A stretch of 24,000 nucleotides of DNA from Paratractidigestivibacter faecalis (GTDB taxonomy: Bacteria; Actinomycetota; Coriobacteriia; Coriobacteriales; Atopobiaceae). Positions 12,009 through 17,978 of the stretch are shown in pieces. Position numbers and translations under genes: made by a program. Where the stretch lies: assembly GCF_003416765.1 (NCBI RefSeq), contig NZ_QSNG01000001.1:188742-212741 (forward strand), in the 5' to 3' direction. The notes below the pieces were generated by a model, which worked only from the letters and a program-made list of their open reading frames with translations, was not told where the DNA came from and made no database searches. Positions within the stretch are counted from its first letter, which is position 1; each line of letters begins with the position of its first letter.

Positions 12009-13550
12009 ATGGCACGGGAGACTTTCCAGACAAGACTCAAGAGGGCCATGGAGAGTGCCGGCCTCAAGCAGGTCGACCTCGTGCGCATTGCCGCCGAGCG
12101 TGGGGCCAAGCTCGGAAAGAGCCAGGTCAGCCAGTATGTCTCGGGCAAGGTCACGCCCCGAAGGGACGTCATGGAGCTCCTTGCCGGCGTCCTTGGGGTC
12201 ACGCCCCAGTGGCTTATGGGCGCCACGGACGCCATGCCTGACGAAGTCGCGCCCGCGGACGCCACGGCCGAGACCGCCGCGCCCCAAGCCCCGAGCACTT
12301 CTCGCCAAAAGACAACGGACCAAGGGAGCGTCACCATGCGAGAGTTCAAGAAGTCCAACAAGCTCGACAACGTCCTGTACGACGTCCGCGGCCCCGTGGT
12401 GGACGAGGCCGCCCGCATGGAGGAGGACGGTGCGCGCATCCTGAAGCTCAACATCGGCAACCCGGCGCCGTTTGGCTTCAGGGCTCCCGACGAGGTGGTC
12501 TACGACATGCGCCAGCAGCTCACGGACTGCGAGGGCTACTCGGACTCCCGCGGTCTCTTTGCCGCGCGCAAGGCCATCATGCAGTACGCCCAGCTGCGCA
12601 ACATCCCCAACGTGGACATGAAGCACATCTACACCGGCAACGGCGTCTCCGAGCTCATCCAGCTCTCCATGCACGCGCTCGTCGACGACGGCGACGAGGT
12701 GCTCATCCCCAGCCCGGACTACCCGCTGTGGACCGCCTGCGTCACCCTGGCCGGCGGCCACGCCGTCCACTACGTCTGCGACGAGCAGAACGAGTGGAAC
12801 CCTGACCTGGCCGACATGGAGTCCAAGGTCACCAGCCGCACCAAGGCCATCGTGGTCATCAACCCCAACAACCCCACGGGTGCCGTCTACTCCAAGGAGG
12901 TTCTGGAGGGCATCGTCGAGATCGCCCGCAAGCACCAGCTCATGATCTTTGCCGACGAGATCTACGATCGCCTGATTATGGACGGCTACCAGCACACCTC
13001 CATCGCCTCGCTCGCGCCCGACCTGCCGTGCGTGACGTTCTCCGGCCTCTCCAAGTCCCATATGATCTGCGGCTACCGCGTGGGTTGGATGGTGCTCTCG
13101 GGCAACCAGCGCTGCATGAGGGACTTCATCTACGGCGTCAACATGCTGTCCAACATGCGCCTGTGCTCCAACGTGCCCGCGCAGTCCATCGTCCAGACGG
13201 CCCTGGGCGGCTACCAGAGCGTCAACGAGTACATCCGCCCCGGCGGCCGCGTCTACGAGCAGCGCAACTACGTCTACGAGGCGCTCAACGCCATCGACGG
13301 CATTACGGCCGTCAAGCCCAAGGCGGCCTTCTACATCTTCCCCAAGATGGACGTCAAGAAGTTCAACATCACGGACGACGAGCAGTTTGCCCTTGACCTG
13401 CTGCACCAGAAGAAGATCCTCATCACCCGCGGCGGCGGCTTCAACTGGGGTGAGCCCGACCACTTCCGCATTGTCTACCTGCCGCGCATGGAGGTGCTCA
13501 GGGAGTCCATGGAGGACCTCGCGGACTTCTTCGCGCACTATCGCCAGTAG
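12009..13550 (+). CDS. XRE-family HTH domain fused to an AlaA/AlaT-type PLP-dependent aminotransferase
   Basis: Start moved to ATG 12009. Residues 1-~72 form an XRE HTH ('LKQVDLVRIAAERGAKLGKSQVSQYVSGKVTPRRDVMELLAGVLGVTPQWLMG'), followed by a ~35-aa Ala/Pro/Thr linker. From M110 ('MREFKKSNKLDNVLYDVRGP') there is a full aminotransferase: 'KLNIGNP', 'VVINPNNPTGAVY', PLP-lysine 'SGLSKSHMICGYRVGW'. One uninterrupted frame, 513 aa. Confidence 0.85.
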   Translation: MARETFQTRLKRAMESAGLKQVDLVRIAAERGAKLGKSQVSQYVSGKVTPRRDVMELLAGVLGVTPQWLMGATDAMPDEVAPADATAETAAPQAPSTSRQKTTDQGSVTMREFKKSNKLDNVLYDVRGPVVDEAARMEEDGARILKLNIGNPAPFGFRAPDEVVYDMRQQLTDCEGYSDSRGLFAARKAIMQYAQLRNIPNVDMKHIYTGNGVSELIQLSMHALVDDGDEVLIPSPDYPLWTACVTLAGGHAVHYVCDEQNEWNPDLADMESKVTSRTKAIVVINPNNPTGAVYSKEVLEGIVEIARKHQLMIFADEIYDRLIMDGYQHTSIASLAPDLPCVTFSGLSKSHMICGYRVGWMVLSGNQRCMRDFIYGVNMLSNMRLCSNVPAQSIVQTALGGYQSVNEYIRPGGRVYEQRNYVYEALNAIDGITAVKPKAAFYIFPKMDVKKFNITDDEQFALDLLHQKKILITRGGGFNWGEPDHFRIVYLPRMEVLRESMEDLADFFAHYRQ

Positions 13551-13820
13551 CGGGTCGCCCGGGGTCTCGCAGCCATCGGTCCACCCAGGCCGCCTCGCCG
13601 TCTGCCGGTGCGTCACGCACCTGTAACGGCGGGGCGGCTACATTTTTCCTACATGTCGGATTGCGCCCCCGCTCCGTGGCGGGCGTTTGGATTGCGGCGT
13701 TACTGTGTGCACGCACTTTGTCTACCTGCGGACTTGTTTCTGCAACGTAAACTTGTGAGCTTGTGAAGCGGCGCATGGTGCGCCGCGCTGTGAACGCCCG
13801 TGGGGCGCAGAAGGAGACGC

Positions 13821-14849
13821 ATGTCTGAGTACACCGAGAACGAGAACGTGATGGACGAGGCCCTGGAGGCCGCTGAGGAGACGGTCGAGGAGACCGAGGA
13901 GATCGTCGAGGCCGAGGAGGCTGCCGACGAGGAGACCGAGCAGGCCGAGGAGGTCGTCGCCGAGGAGCAGGACCGCGACGCCATCCTCTTTGACAAGGCA
14001 CAGCGTGCCGCCCGCCTTCTGCGCAACCGTCGCGACGCCATCTCCAAGGAGGCCGACACCAAGGCCGAGCGCATGAGCGACATGGTTCGTGCCCTCAAGC
14101 TCCTGGAGCTCAAGCCCAAGATGGAGCAGAAGGAGATGGCCGACCTGCTGGGCATGAGCCTGCGCGCCCTTGACGAGCTCATGGCCAAGGCCGAGGCCGA
14201 GGACCTGGTGGGCCGCATCGAGTCCGAGGAGGACGACAAGCGCAAGGTCGTCGTCTTCGCCGCCGAGGGCGCCGTCGAGGCTGCCGCCAACGCCAAGCCG
14301 GAGAAGGACCACTACGTCCCCAGCCTCTCTGACGAGAAGATCGACGAGATTTGCGCCATGCTCGACGAGATCATCAACCCGCTGACCGAGATGGGCCTGG
14401 ACAACGACCGTCGCGACGGCCGCGGTGGCTTCGGCGGCCGCGATGACCGTCGCGGTGGCGACCGCAACGGCTTCCGCGGCGGCGACCGTGGCGGCCGTGG
14501 CGGCTTCGGCGGCCGTGGCGGCGACCGTGGTGGCCGCGGCGGCTTCGGCGGCCGCGATGACCGTCGCGGCGGCGACCGTGGCGGCCGCAGCTTTGGCGAC
14601 CGTGACAGCCGTGGCGGCGACCGTGGTGGCCGCGGCGGCTTCGGCGGCCGCGATGACCGTCGCGGCGGCGACCGTGGCGGCCGCAGCTTTGGCGACCGTG
14701 GCGGCTACGGCAACCGTGGCGGCTACGGCGACCGTGGCGACCGTGGTGGCTACGGCGGCCGTGACAGCCGTGGCGGCGACCGTGGCGGTCGTGGCGGCTA
14801 CGGCTCCCGTGGCGGCTACGGCAACCGCGGCGGCTACAACCGCGACTAG
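13821..14849 (+). CDS. Hypothetical protein: acidic N-terminal tract, MarR-like wHTH-looking core, C-terminal RGG/RGGF/RGGY repeat tail
   Basis: ATG 13821 with SD aaggag (13811-13816); 342 aa. Residues 1-~52 are about 60% Glu/Asp. The core 'MVRALKLLELKPKMEQKEMADLLGMSLRALDELMAKAEAEDLVGRIESEEDDKRKVVVF' follows the MarR wHTH pattern by eye. Residues ~194-342 contain 23 RGG triplets by my count. A canonical terminator follows. The frame is supported by G/C-dominated third positions and the SD. Confidence 0.75.
   Translation: MSEYTENENVMDEALEAAEETVEETEEIVEAEEAADEETEQAEEVVAEEQDRDAILFDKAQRAARLLRNRRDAISKEADTKAERMSDMVRALKLLELKPKMEQKEMADLLGMSLRALDELMAKAEAEDLVGRIESEEDDKRKVVVFAAEGAVEAAANAKPEKDHYVPSLSDEKIDEICAMLDEIINPLTEMGLDNDRRDGRGGFGGRDDRRGGDRNGFRGGDRGGRGGFGGRGGDRGGRGGFGGRDDRRGGDRGGRSFGDRDSRGGDRGGRGGFGGRDDRRGGDRGGRSFGDRGGYGNRGGYGDRGDRGGYGGRDSRGGDRGGRGGYGSRGGYGNRGGYNRD
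14512..14700 (+). repeat. In-frame tandem duplication within the RGG tail coding region
   Basis: 14512-14604 and 14608-14700 are identical over 93 nt (period 96 nt = 32 codons, 'GGDRGGRGGFGGRDDRRGGDRGGRSFGDR'). A diverged third copy of the GGFGGRDDRRGGDR core lies at ~14425-14466. The whole span 14400-14846 is a degenerate GGC/CGT/GAC repeat. Confidence 0.95.
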
Positions 14850-14875
14850 CCCCTCGCTCAACGCGCAGGCGCAAA

Positions 14876-14909
14876 GGAGCCCCCGGGTCATCTCGGGGGC
14901 TCCTTTTTT
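14876..14909 (+). terminator. Rho-independent terminator of the RGG-protein gene
   Basis: ggagcccccg (14876-14885) pairs with cgggggctcc (14894-14903), a perfect 10 bp with an 8-nt loop. It is followed by tttttt (14904-14909) and preceded by aaa, so weak bidirectional use is possible. Confidence 0.85.
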
Positions 14910-14916
14910 GTTGAGA

Positions 14917-14949
14917 AATGAGACAAAGGGACAGTCCCTTTGTCTCATT
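14917..14949. other. Second, perfect 15-bp hairpin at the convergent junction with pdxT
   Basis: aatgagacaaaggga (14917-14931) pairs with tccctttgtctcatt (14935-14949) across a 3-nt loop (cag). There is no U-tract on either strand. It lies 17 nt from the pdxT stop (14966-14968). Confidence 0.6.
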
Positions 14950-14965
14950 GCGTAATTGATGTACC

Positions 14966-16565: not shown

Positions 16566-17978
16566 ATGCTTGACTACAACCTTGCCGAGAAGGGCGAGCT
16601 GTCTCTTTACGAGTATCTCTACCGGCGCATTCGCGATGACATTGTGTCTGGCGTCCTGGAGGCTGACGATCGTCTGCCCTCCAAGCGCTCGCTGGCGCAG
16701 CATCTGGGCGTGAGCCTGGTCACCGTCGAGGGCGCCTATGCGCAGCTCGTGGCCGAGGGCTATGTGAGGGCGCGCGCGAGGAGCGGCTACTTTGTCAACG
16801 CGCTGCCGGGGCTGCCTGTTCGGACGGCCCTCGTGCAAAGGAGCGCCACGGCCTTGCCTTCGGGGGTGGTCGCGCCGGCCGAGGCCATCCCCAAGGCGTC
16901 CGAGGATTCCGGCGAGCTGGCTCGGCTCTGGTCACGGGCCCTTCGGGACGCCCTGGCAAACGAGCCGGAGTCCGAGCTCTTCTCACCTGCTCCGCCGCAG
17001 GGCCTCTGGCGGCTTCGAGCGGCCATTGCGGACTACCTGTGCCAGACGCGTGGCATGGAGGTCGACCCCTCGTGCGTTGTGGTGGGTGCGGGCGCGCAGA
17101 CCCTGGACAATATGATCGTGCAGCTCCTGGGGCATGAGCTCACCTACGGGGTCGAGGATCCTGGGTATCCGCGGCTCACCCGCCTCTATCGGGCAAATGG
17201 GGTGAAGGTGGTCCACGTCGGCCTGGACGGCGAGGGCGTCCGTATGGACGAGGTGGGCGCTGCCTGTCCCGATGTCATGCACCTCATGCCGTCCCACCAG
17301 TTCCCAACGGGCCGCGTGACCAGCATCGCAAGAAGGTACGAGCTGCTGGGGTGGGCCTGCGCGGAGGCGGGGAGCCGCTGGATCATCGAGGATGACTACG
17401 ACTGCGAGTTCCGCCTGGCGGGGCGCCCCGTCCCGGCGCTGGCAAGCATCGACGCCACCGGTAGCGTCATATACACCAACACATTCTCAAAGGGCCTCGG
17501 TGCCGCCCTGCGCCTGGCCTATATGGTCTTGCCCGGGCAGCTGATGGAGCGCTACGGCACCGAGCTGGGCTTCTATTCCACCACGGTGAGCTCCGTCCAG
17601 CAGGTTGCCCTGGCGCGCCTGCTCGAGTCCGGCGCCTACGAGCGTCACGTGGCCCGCATGCGCAAGCGCTACCGTGAGCTGCGCGACGAGTTTGCAGACG
17701 TGCTCGCGAAGTCTGGCCTGGCCGACCGGGTCCGCATGGAGGAGGCGGACTCCGGCCTTCACTTCGTGCTGGCGGTGGGCACGTCCCTCTCCGAGGAGGA
17801 GCTGGTGGCGCGGGTCGCCGGGCCGGGCCTTTCTCCCATGCCCCTCTCTTCGTGCGCCTGCCTGCCAAAGAACCGCACGGCCCCAGATGGCCTGGCGCGT
17901 CTTGTCGTGCAGTACGGGAGCCTTGACTCCGAGGCAATCTCCGCCTTTGGGGCCGAGTTGAGCCGCGCTTTGGCATAG
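16566..17978 (+). CDS. pdxR: MocR-family regulator (GntR wHTH + aminotransferase-fold domain), PdxR-type by context
   Basis: 470 aa. N-terminal GntR HTH 'LPSKRSLAQHLGVSLVTVEGAYAQLVAEGYVRARARSGYFV', a linker, then a type-I aminotransferase-like domain with 'YTNTFSKGLGAALRLAYMV' (PLP-lysine). Transcribed divergently from pdxST, the classical PdxR arrangement. Confidence 0.85.
   Translation: MLDYNLAEKGELSLYEYLYRRIRDDIVSGVLEADDRLPSKRSLAQHLGVSLVTVEGAYAQLVAEGYVRARARSGYFVNALPGLPVRTALVQRSATALPSGVVAPAEAIPKASEDSGELARLWSRALRDALANEPESELFSPAPPQGLWRLRAAIADYLCQTRGMEVDPSCVVVGAGAQTLDNMIVQLLGHELTYGVEDPGYPRLTRLYRANGVKVVHVGLDGEGVRMDEVGAACPDVMHLMPSHQFPTGRVTSIARRYELLGWACAEAGSRWIIEDDYDCEFRLAGRPVPALASIDATGSVIYTNTFSKGLGAALRLAYMVLPGQLMERYGTELGFYSTTVSSVQQVALARLLESGAYERHVARMRKRYRELRDEFADVLAKSGLADRVRMEEADSGLHFVLAVGTSLSEEELVARVAGPGLSPMPLSSCACLPKNRTAPDGLARLVVQYGSLDSEAISAFGAELSRALA

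Follow-up and report, generated by a model that had tools for sequence, protein, structure and literature searches.

The stretch of DNA that was analysed, called the window here, spans 24,000 nucleotides of Paratractidigestivibacter faecalis (Atopobiaceae), an actinobacterium of the gut. Within it, an open reading frame runs on the forward strand from the ATG at 13821 to the TAG at 14847-14849 and translates into 342 amino acids. In RefSeq the product has an exact match, WP_117204352.1, a "hypothetical protein" of the same species. The gene and the signals around it are as follows.

13821..14849, forward strand: coding sequence, 342 amino acids plus stop, product identical to WP_117204352.1
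13811..13816, forward strand: Shine-Dalgarno sequence AAGGAG, 4 nt 5' of the ATG, read directly
13748..13753, forward strand: tentative candidate for a -10-like box, TAAACT, about 70 nt ahead of the ATG
14873..14912, forward strand: intrinsic terminator with a 15-bp stem, a 4-nt loop and a T-run, from the terminator analysis

The gene and its expression signals

The gene at 13821-14849 on the forward strand is a real, monocistronic gene, as the first-pass annotation of this DNA had held, together with its AAGGAG Shine-Dalgarno sequence and its length of 342 amino acids. In the alignment of upstream regions GAAGGAG is kept ahead of the orthologues, and the TAAACT box is shared with L003 and L028; since a sigma-70 consensus scan upstream of the gene found no full promoter, the box is offered as a tentative promoter element only. 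The canonical terminator is present as well, with its stem at 14873-14906, a trivial offset from the 14876-14909 given earlier; 10 of the 15 pairs are G-C, TTTTTTGTT comes next after the stem, and the structure also faces the convergent pdxT gene. The reading frame and the start codon are supported by a GC3 of 0.92-0.94 in the head and core of the frame, by an N-terminus, MSE[YF]xEN, that is conserved among homologues, and by the exact RefSeq match. Long open reading frames that cross the repeat in other frames, such as the one at 13722-14948 on the minus strand, were set aside as artefacts of GC-rich repeats. Folding of the 5' leader RNA showed no extra stability over shuffled sequences (z -0.13), so a riboswitch or thermosensor in the leader was dropped, and Rfam found no match over the whole window.

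Codon usage is extremely biased. CGG, CGA, AGR, GGG, GGA and GCG make up none of the 147 arginine, glycine and alanine codons but about 28% of those in nine neighbouring genes, and CGT supplies 51% of the arginine codons, against 12% in those neighbours. The core taken alone has none of the disfavoured codons among 36, and the orthologues in Collinsella and elsewhere show a like trend. Such usage is typical of a highly expressed gene and suggests that the protein is abundant.

An acidic head, a MarR-like core and an RGG tail

The protein falls into three blocks, and AlphaFold2 (AF2) predicts 56% of it to be disordered. Taken whole, it has a pI of 4.9 and a net charge of about -17.

13821..13961, forward strand: acidic disordered head, residues 1-47 (pLDDT below 50, no secondary structure, composition)
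13962..14417, forward strand: folded core, residues 48-199, of a divergent MarR-type fold (AF2, Foldseek, profile matches, hhalign)
14127..14261, forward strand: wHTH proper, residues 103-147 (AF2 secondary structure, invariant columns)
14418..14846, forward strand: RGG/GAR-type disordered tail, residues 200-342 (composition, AF2, RGG counts)
14512..14700, forward strand: perfect 96-bp tandem duplication, 2.0 copies at 100% identity, within the tail-coding repeat

The head is almost a pure run of negative charge. Residues 1-50 are 42% glutamate, hold no lysine or arginine and carry a net charge of -23, which bears out the acidic N-terminal block of about 50 residues described at first sight, and AlphaFold2 places no secondary structure in residues 1-47, whose pLDDT stays below 50. 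The heads of the orthologues are 30-92 residues long, with 40-72% Asp plus Glu and at most 2% Lys plus Arg; in the homologue alignment the head sequence is poorly conserved except for this composition.

The core was modelled with a mean pLDDT of 83 and is laid out as a long helix alpha1/2, a wHTH, a wing, alpha5 and alpha6. In the wHTH, alpha3 spans residues 103-110, the recognition helix 114-126 and the wing strands 130-133 and 144-147; the AF2 model of the core has helices at 7-52, 58-65, 69-81, 106-111 and 126-145 and strands at 85-88 and 99-102. The best 50 Foldseek matches in the PDB all belong to the MarR family, with 121-173 columns aligned; splaying of the monomer model keeps the TM at about 0.4. 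In a profile search of the PDB, MarR proteins make up 21 of the 23 matches (best E 0.002), and hhalign joins the family profile A2 to A6, a profile of relatives that pass Pfam MarR at 1e-8 to 1e-13, with 99.5% probability (E 2.9e-22, 147 columns). Single sequences give far less. The core alone scores 12.4 bits against Pfam MarR (PF01047/PF12802), below the cut-off of 24.6 (E 0.15), and the full-length protein has no match to Pfam MarR; its sole Pfam match, Herpes_pp85, was rejected as a spurious product of low complexity. The NCBIfam model HpaR matches the single sequence at E 1.7e-5, and none of the NCBIfam MarR-type models passed (12-25 bits against cut-offs of 88-240). On the models, then, the core is a divergent MarR domain, weak by single sequence and solid at the level of profile and structure, and the winged-helix call made from the bare sequence survives both the profile comparisons and the structure prediction.

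Among 30-35 homologues R115, R132 and D139-x-R141 are invariant, within a total of about 24-31 invariant core columns, depending on the alignment. The core D-x-R aligns with the wing motif D-R-R of SlyA, and R132 and D139-x-R141 correspond to wing positions through which MarR proteins touch nucleic acid. The recognition helix is rich in Glu, Asp and Ala and is acidic or neutral, which makes base-specific reading doubtful.

The tail qualifies as a true disordered region of the RGG/GAR type. Residues 196-342 consist of 44% Gly, 26% Arg, 15% Asp and 9% Phe plus Tyr, with a net charge of +16, an NCPR of +0.11 and a kappa of 0.05; residues 200-342 are modelled at a pLDDT of 34-47 with secondary structure absent, so that both ends of the protein are predicted to be disordered. 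The count of 23 RGG triplets reported earlier is exact, and so is the observation that Asp is interspersed among them. Composition alone would give 7.4 +/- 2.0 such triplets, as judged from 20,000 composition-preserving shuffles, none of which attained 23 (maximum 16), a threefold enrichment. There are 8 overlapping starts that fit the Tri-RGG definition (RGG-X0-4-RGG-X0-4-RGG), plus 14 Di-RGG, and 10 of the 13 Phe and Tyr residues of the tail lie in an RGG[FY] context.

At the DNA level, the perfect 96-bp duplication points to a recent expansion of the tail repeat. Length variants of 260-342 residues within the species arise from block indels confined to the tail, a variation that short-read assembly may exaggerate, as the repeat breaks contigs at 29 of 78 loci. 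Across orthologues the tail is 70-177 residues long, having varied through gain and loss of repeats, and its composition (Gly 0.42-0.50, Arg 0.23-0.26, Asp plus Glu 0.10-0.14, Phe plus Tyr 0.06-0.10) is nearly constant, with a charge that is always net positive. A near-fixed composition over a varying length argues for selection on composition, as for a functional IDR. The RGG triplets are encoded in 5 synonymous DNA versions, and these variants, together with the optimal codons used throughout, argue for selection at the protein level.

Distribution, neighbourhood and known relatives

The gene was found in at least 504 species genomes of Collinsella and Atopobiaceae, which bears on the phyletic distribution that the first-pass annotation asked about: the family is Coriobacteriales-wide and vertically inherited, and it looks single-copy. 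It is near-universal in Collinsella, where the variant KLLDLKP occurs, and database members number 5,707 in the orthologue cluster of C. aerofaciens alone. Both arms are retained in 49 of 49 complete orthologues, from at least two families of Coriobacteriales. Synteny with HTH-AlaAT and pdxT-pdxS-pdxR is conserved in Collinsella, where extra genes sit between AlaAT and the RGG-tail gene; in the Olegusella-type branch this synteny is absent and the neighbours are cation efflux genes. A functional link to PLP metabolism was therefore rejected. Across the branches compared, no functionally linked, divergent or co-transcribed neighbour is conserved. The upstream inverted repeats are short, and no palindrome is kept across six aligned upstream regions, so MarR-style autoregulation is not supported. 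A stand-alone cistron with no conserved operator, whose neighbours change between branches, speaks against the role of a local regulator.

An origin from a phage, a defence system or a plasmid was rejected: PHROGs gave no match to the protein, plasmid and phage sequences searched with the core by tblastn gave none, the sole PADLOC match was a marginal Csa3 wHTH (E 0.006), and the gene is chromosomal, with its synteny conserved in Collinsella. Searches of Pfam and NCBIfam matched no nucleoid-associated protein family, and at 342 residues, pI 4.9 and a net charge of about -17 the protein is not a classical one of the HU, H-NS, Lsr2 or Fis type.

The topology of the core, alpha1, alpha2, wHTH, wing, alpha5 and alpha6, is that of MarR/SlyA proteins (MepR, OhrR, SlyA, MarR), and the wing D-x-R with its preceding Arg is conserved in both. 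Unlike them, the RGG-tail protein lies below the Pfam and NCBIfam thresholds, has a 47-residue polyacidic head, a 143-residue RGG tail and an acidic recognition helix, shows the codon usage of a highly expressed gene, and has no operator or adjacent target gene found. Its closest certified MarR relatives are unnamed, uncharacterised tier-2 proteins (P0132, P0135, P0141, P0160, P0209 and P0218), which also carry a low-complexity extension of 50-200 residues past alpha6. A tail on a MarR core is thus not unique. Those tails, however, are mostly His/Gly/Pro-rich or Gly-rich rather than built of RGG and Asp, the relatives have no acidic head, and their cores pass the Pfam MarR thresholds. What sets this protein apart is that an acidic head and an RGG tail occur together.

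Bacterial Arg/Gly tails had been listed earlier for helicases and RNase E, a list to which the Rho insertions of Actinomycetota belong too. In that high-GC phylum, R/D/N/G-rich insertion domains of Rho raise its RNA affinity (PMC11347177). In Rho of B. thetaiotaomicron, an acidic motif autoinhibits basic motifs until release leads to RNA binding and condensation, which its authors compare to G3BP1 (PMC13269538). The RGG tail has its amino-acid palette and its high-GC phylum in common with the Actinomycetota insertions. In Rho, bacterial DEAD-box helicases and RNase E, IDRs for RNA affinity or condensates decorate enzymes, whereas here they flank a small non-enzymatic wHTH and form most of the protein.

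Eukaryotic proteins offer a likeness of a different kind. The stress-granule scaffold G3BP1 joins a folded dimerisation domain to an acidic IDR and to an RGG IDR at its C-terminus, and binding of RNA relieves the autoinhibition that the acidic IDR exerts on the RGG region; the logic of the parts is alike, but there is no homology, with NTF2-like and RRM domains there and a MarR fold here. In nucleolin, acidic stretches at the N-terminus are combined with nucleic-acid-binding domains and a GAR domain at the C-terminus, and the RGG boxes of nucleolin and of the FET proteins (FUS/EWS/TAF15) are spaced by Asp and Phe/Tyr. The motif style of the tail (GDRGGRGGFGGRGG) closely resembles these boxes, spacing included. 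The likeness to nucleolin, Nsr1 and FET is convergent, not homologous: the folded domain here is a bacterial wHTH, and neither a bacterial arginine methyltransferase nor a context of nuclear import is known to apply. Abundant architectural wHTH proteins of low specificity exist in bacteria (SarA/SlyA-type) and archaea (TrmBL2, Sso10a), and acidic tails tune nucleic-acid binding in HMGB1 and in region 1.1 of sigma70. None of these is known to pair an acidic head with an RGG tail, and the present protein differs from classical nucleoid proteins in being acidic as a whole.

The layout of acidic head, MarR core and RGG tail appears to be undescribed, in keeping with the first impression of it. Full-text literature searches that covered RGG and MarR proteins, the host species, Collinsella and disordered tails yielded no account of the family, and a paper on a database of bacterial LLPS does not mention MarR or RGG proteins. 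The sources that name the protein say "hypothetical protein", save one JGI label on a relative, "DNA-binding MarR family transcriptional regulator". In metagenome assemblies members are often truncated, as the contigs end within the repeat, and this, with the near-universal "hypothetical" naming, has led the family to be systematically overlooked.

A possible nucleic-acid scaffold and its alternatives

The reading we prefer, at a probability of about 0.4, is that of an abundant dimeric scaffold for nucleic acid, probably RNA, in which acidic heads would tune the RGG tails by a logic like that of G3BP1 and nucleolin. We infer each of its parts: dimerisation, nucleic-acid binding, RNA preference, head-tail autoinhibition and condensation. 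MarR proteins dimerise through an interface formed by alpha1, alpha5 and alpha6, and judging from the fold the core would do so too, giving two wHTH wings and two RGG tails per particle. Through its tails the particle would engage RNA, or else GC-rich nucleic acid that is single-stranded or structured, by multivalent contacts that depend little on sequence. Nucleic acid would have a competitor in the acidic heads, which would also seek the tails and basic surfaces of alpha1 and the wing, either in cis, as autoinhibition, or in trans, by head-to-tail association; binding would then start only above a certain threshold, and clustering or condensation that depends on RNA or on concentration could follow. 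Such a protein would be cytoplasmic and generally associated with nucleic acid, not a pathway-specific repressor. The strong Shine-Dalgarno sequence and terminator, the codon bias, the RGG enrichment and the invariant wing residues side with a scaffold. A bolder version would make the protein a convergent bacterial counterpart of G3BP1 and nucleolin, an abundant MarR-fold dimer whose RNA-binding, head-autoinhibited tails would form a tunable switch for the nucleation of condensates, of RNA and protein or of the nucleoid, in Coriobacteriales, with the repeat-encoded tail length as a rapidly evolving dial that sets the condensation threshold at strain level; we hold this version to be unlikely.

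Could the protein instead be a conventional MarR-type transcription factor, sequence-specific and with a defined regulon, whose arms only modulate how tightly it binds DNA, how it searches or how it responds to a ligand? Its homology to MarR and its MarR fold, both genuine, an invariant D-x-R and R132 typical of DNA-contacting MarR proteins, the JGI label and the tails of the nearest certified MarR relatives all point that way. We nonetheless judge it somewhat unlikely: no palindromic upstream operator is conserved, there is no divergent or co-transcribed target and synteny is not kept across branches, the recognition helix is acidic or neutral, more than half of the protein is disordered, and the extreme codon bias suggests that the protein is far more abundant than specific repressors typically are. 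High expression would suit a hub or chaperone too, one whose head binds basic proteins (ribosomal, HU-like or RNA polymerase) while its tail tethers it to RNA, in the manner of nucleolin or NPM1 in ribosome or RNP assembly. The conserved charge of the head, with its scarcity of Lys and Arg, the N-terminal motif MSE[YF]xEN and the parallel with the acidic stretches, RNA-binding domains and GAR tail of nucleolin fit that role; but the gene neighbourhood points to no partner and the head is poorly conserved beyond its composition, and we regard it as quite unlikely.

Finally, the arms might have arisen by replication slippage in a genome rich in GC and be functionally neutral, carried by a decaying or minor MarR paralogue. 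Tandem DNA repeats do encode the tail, the perfect 96-bp duplication among them, and tail length is polymorphic within the species, if perhaps exaggerated by short-read assembly. Yet all complete orthologues, in at least two families of Coriobacteriales, keep both arms at near-constant composition and charge sign, RGG is threefold enriched over composition, the synonymous RGG codons and optimal codons point to selection on the protein, and the core retains its invariant columns. This explanation is already disfavoured and seems to us very improbable.

If the scaffold reading is true, the family would be the first MarR transcription-factor fold in bacteria to have been turned into an RGG-tailed, acidic-headed scaffold, and a compact and genetically simple prokaryotic system, one protein of 342 residues whose three modules can be separated, for the gating of binding and condensation by IDRs of opposite charge. 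Collinsella is a prevalent genus of the human gut and has been linked to rheumatoid arthritis, and known autoantigens have GAR epitopes; that these epitopes have a likeness in a bacterial protein which is abundant and holds over 20 RGG triplets is a purely speculative analogy. The natural polymorphism in tail length, from 260 to 342 residues of protein in one species, is a ready-made allelic series.

Gene structure and three-block product

The focal gene encodes a 342-aa protein identical to RefSeq WP_117204352.1, a 'hypothetical protein [Paratractidigestivibacter faecalis]' on a 2.09-Mb contig of a host belonging to the Actinomycetota, Coriobacteriia, Coriobacteriales, Atopobiaceae. Its reading frame and start codon are secure, given a GC3 of 0.92-0.94 in head and core, an N-terminus (MSE[YF]xEN) common to the homologues, and the RefSeq identity. 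The first-pass annotation described a monocistronic gene with an AAGGAG Shine-Dalgarno sequence and a canonical terminator, which is borne out by the following signals together with the 270-bp non-coding gap after the preceding gene:

13811-13816, + strand: Shine-Dalgarno AAGGAG, 4 bases 5' of the ATG
13821-14849, + strand: focal CDS, ATG 13821 to TAG 14849, 342 aa
14873-14906, + strand: strong intrinsic terminator 3' of the stop, 15-bp stem with 10 G-C pairs, then a T-run

Two Ala/Val/Thr-rich open reading frames across the same region, of 408 aa (13722-14948, -) and 176 aa (14425-14955, +), were rejected as artefacts of the GC-rich repeat, although they could mislead gene callers.

The proposed layout of acidic head, core and RGG tail holds in composition and charge: residues 1-50 are 42% Glu with no Lys or Arg (net charge -23), residues 51-195 are mixed helical (net charge -10), and residues 196-342 are 44% Gly, 26% Arg, 15% Asp and 9% Phe plus Tyr (net charge +16). 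The original count of 23 RGG triplets in the tail is correct. In 20,000 shuffles the tail yielded 7.4 +/- 2.0 triplets with a maximum of 16, so the RGG pattern is not a by-product of tail composition; furthermore, 10 of the 13 tail aromatic residues directly follow an RGG, and the Tri-RGG definition is satisfied at 8 overlapping positions. In a full-length AlphaFold2 model, residues 1-47 and 200-342 have pLDDT below 50 and no secondary structure, while the core (48-199) is confident; 190 of the 342 residues (56%) are thus predicted to be disordered. With an NCPR of -0.46 the head is polyanionic; the tail, by its FCR (0.41), NCPR (+0.11) and kappa (0.05), is a weak, well-mixed polyampholyte. 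The pI of the whole protein is 4.9. The tail is encoded by nested tandem repeats, among them a perfect 96-bp duplication (14512-14700). The focal protein ends in ...GGYNRD (14838-14846), unlike most orthologues (loci L003, L005, L027, L028 and others), which end in Arg and a terminal aromatic (...NRF, ...NRY, ...RRY or ...SRY); these C-termini and the common N-terminus may act as short linear motifs.

A divergent MarR core

Single-sequence searches of the core fall short of curated family thresholds: Pfam finds no MarR match in the full-length protein, the core alone reaches 12.4 bits against a MarR cut-off of 24.6, and the NCBIfam matches to MarR-type models (HpaR, OhrR, MarR_EPS; residues 88-185) are sub-threshold. 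At profile and fold level, however, the core belongs with the MarR proteins. When a profile of 18 family cores was searched against PDB sequences, 21 of the 23 matches were MarR-family regulators (SlyA, OhrR, MepR, MgrA, HosA and others; best E 0.002), with alignments spanning nearly the whole domain. HMMER, run exhaustively against 1.84 billion representatives, returned 977 relatives. A second tier of these, at E about 1e-12, scores above the cut-offs of Pfam MarR and MarR_2 (E 1e-8 to 1e-13) and aligns with the focal family in hhalign at 99.5% probability (E 2.9e-22, 147 columns). Three independent lines place the core in the MarR superfamily, of which the protein is by descent a divergent member, and the earlier MarR-like call stands despite the single-sequence failure.

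The wing residues D139-x-R141, together with R132, are invariant and align with the D-R-R of the SlyA wing; in MarR-DNA complexes the wing arginine touches the minor groove. The recognition helix is unusually acidic (consensus R-L-R-E-L-D-x-x-L-A-E-A-E), which makes base-specific DNA reading by this helix doubtful.

The nearest certified MarR relatives, also unnamed, carry low-complexity C-terminal tails too, but of a His/Gly/Pro type and without an acidic head. The tails of relatives P0132, P0141, P0145, P0160, P0209 and P0218, all unnamed in every source, are long and consist of HGHGPHG-type His/Gly/Pro stretches, GKGQGFHHGSGKGK repeats or Gly/Arg/Phe-rich sequence. MarR proteins with disordered tails may be a broader undescribed phenomenon.

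Distribution and evolution of the family

Searching with the core alone gave 77 close homologues, all in Coriobacteriia and each either unnamed or 'hypothetical'. The architecture was found described in neither databases nor the searchable literature, in keeping with the initial impression that it was undescribed. With each GTDB species represented by one genome, at least 504 species carry a relative; among the matches listed, nearly all are labelled Collinsella, Coriobacteriaceae or Atopobium, with three loci bearing other bin labels (Bacteroidaceae, Oscillospiraceae, Prevotella). In a more divergent branch (Olegusella, Atopobiaceae), the acidic head is shorter and the tails are of RGG/DRGG type. 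For a MarR protein the architecture is unexpected. The family occurs widely in a major genus of the human gut and has been overlooked partly for technical reasons.

Among the best 80 loci, the three blocks recur in all 49 complete copies, with heads of 30-92 aa and tails of 70-177 aa that contain 11-23 RGG triplets (25 in L002). In another 29 copies, of 78 related loci, the contig stops within the tail repeat (L004, L006-L010, L012-L014, L016, L018-L021, L024, L025, L030-L032, L037, L044, L052, L059, L063, L065, L074, L077-L079; L082 also ends there). Because contigs break inside the RGG-coding repeat, many database homologues are 'partial' or tail-collapsed, and short-read metagenome assemblies systematically cut the family short. 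The 302 members of the P. faecalis 90% cluster hardly differ in head and core; block indels in the tail (P0002, P0221-P0233) give proteins of 260-342 aa, a range in which true allelic variation and assembly collapse are not separable and part of which may be short-read collapse.

Across 32 distinct complete proteins, tail length varies 2.5-fold, yet tail composition is nearly constant (G 0.42-0.50, R 0.23-0.26, D+E 0.10-0.14, F+Y 0.06-0.10; net charge +8 to +21), and D+E make up 40-72% of the heads, K+R no more than 2%. This bears the mark of selection on the composition and charge of the disordered regions rather than on their sequence. At L023 (5830-6885, Coriobacteriaceae), an apparently frameshifted tail ends in ...RQPWRRPRRSRW, with many non-optimal codons in the tail (21/147) and none in the core; the cause is a sequencing error or else a natural allele frameshifted in the repeat.

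The focal gene lies on the chromosome and has descended vertically: P. faecalis and Collinsella share the order HTH-AlaAT, focal gene, pdxT-pdxS, pdxR, no relatives were found in plasmid and phage collections, and the protein matches nothing in libraries of phage and defence families. In Collinsella, AlaAT and the orthologue are separated by an inserted deformylase-like gene and MFS transporter; in the Olegusella-type branch, the pdx/AlaAT synteny is lost and a cation-efflux gene lies upstream instead.

Expression, proposed mechanism and neighbouring genes

None of the 147 Arg/Gly/Ala codons of the focal gene is CGG, CGA, AGR, GGG, GGA or GCG, against about 28% in nine neighbours, and the core alone is equally free of them (0/36). 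CGT supplies 51% of Arg codons (12% in the neighbours), GAA and AAA are absent, and orthologues follow the same trend. Codon choice this extreme is typical of highly expressed genes and is not what a pathway-specific MarR repressor usually shows. No conserved operator-like palindrome was found upstream, the 5' leader has no significant structure, Rfam gives no match, and the gene context carries no functional signal.

In design the protein resembles two eukaryotic proteins, by convergence and not homology: G3BP1, with a dimer domain, an acidic IDR and an RGG IDR, and nucleolin, with acidic stretches, nucleic-acid-binding domains and a GAR tail. The tail shares phylum and amino-acid palette with the Rho insertion regions of high-GC Actinomycetota, which are rich in Arg, Asp, Asn and Gly and raise RNA affinity in M. 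tuberculosis and M. luteus (PMC11347177). An acidic motif of B. thetaiotaomicron Rho keeps two basic motifs autoinhibited; their release permits RNA binding and condensation, a mechanism that the authors liken to G3BP1 (PMC13269538).

Functional claims for the focal protein are entirely inferential, and the reading we prefer, at a probability of about 0.42, is tentative. The MarR fold would dimerise into a particle that bears its wings, RGG tails and acidic heads in pairs. By RGG chemistry and the Rho precedent, the tails would make multivalent contacts with RNA, or with single-stranded or structured GC-rich nucleic acid, and the wings, given their invariant residues, would add backbone or minor-groove contacts. 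The heads, given their charge and the precedents of G3BP1, B. thetaiotaomicron Rho and HMGB1, would compete in cis or trans for the tails and the basic alpha1/wing surfaces, setting a threshold for binding and possibly also for condensate clustering. A global role is favoured because of the probable high expression and the lack of operator or regulon context. Against this model stand the acidity of the protein overall and of its recognition helix, and a tail whose charge is weak and well mixed.

A conventional MarR regulator with modulatory tails is unlikely though worth keeping in view; it has the fold on its side, and the codon usage is unusual for such a repressor. Less probable again is a protein-binding hub or chaperone of the nucleolin/NPM1 kind, working through the acidic head. 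That the arms are neutral slippage products on a minor paralogue is very improbable: the repeats would suit slippage, but arm composition is conserved, RGG is threefold enriched and the codons are optimal. Under the charge-gated reading, the family would offer a simple, testable bacterial model for RGG function.

Several other genes in the window deserve a remark in their own right:

12009-13547, + strand: XRE-type HTH_3 fused to an AlaA-like class I/II aminotransferase, upstream of the focal gene
16566-17975: gene of MocR/PdxR layout (GntR wHTH plus aminotransferase), near the focal gene
70-2466, - strand: 798-aa ORF, M32 carboxypeptidase match over the C-terminal ~460 residues only
1768-2784, + strand: ROK-family kinase gene, overlapped by the 798-aa ORF on the opposite strand

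The 798-aa ORF is over-extended at its 5' end. The HTH_3 fusion differs from the classical MocR/PdxR layout and may represent a separate class of aminotransferase-domain regulators; it is kept in Collinsella and other Coriobacteriales loci at 76-83% identity.
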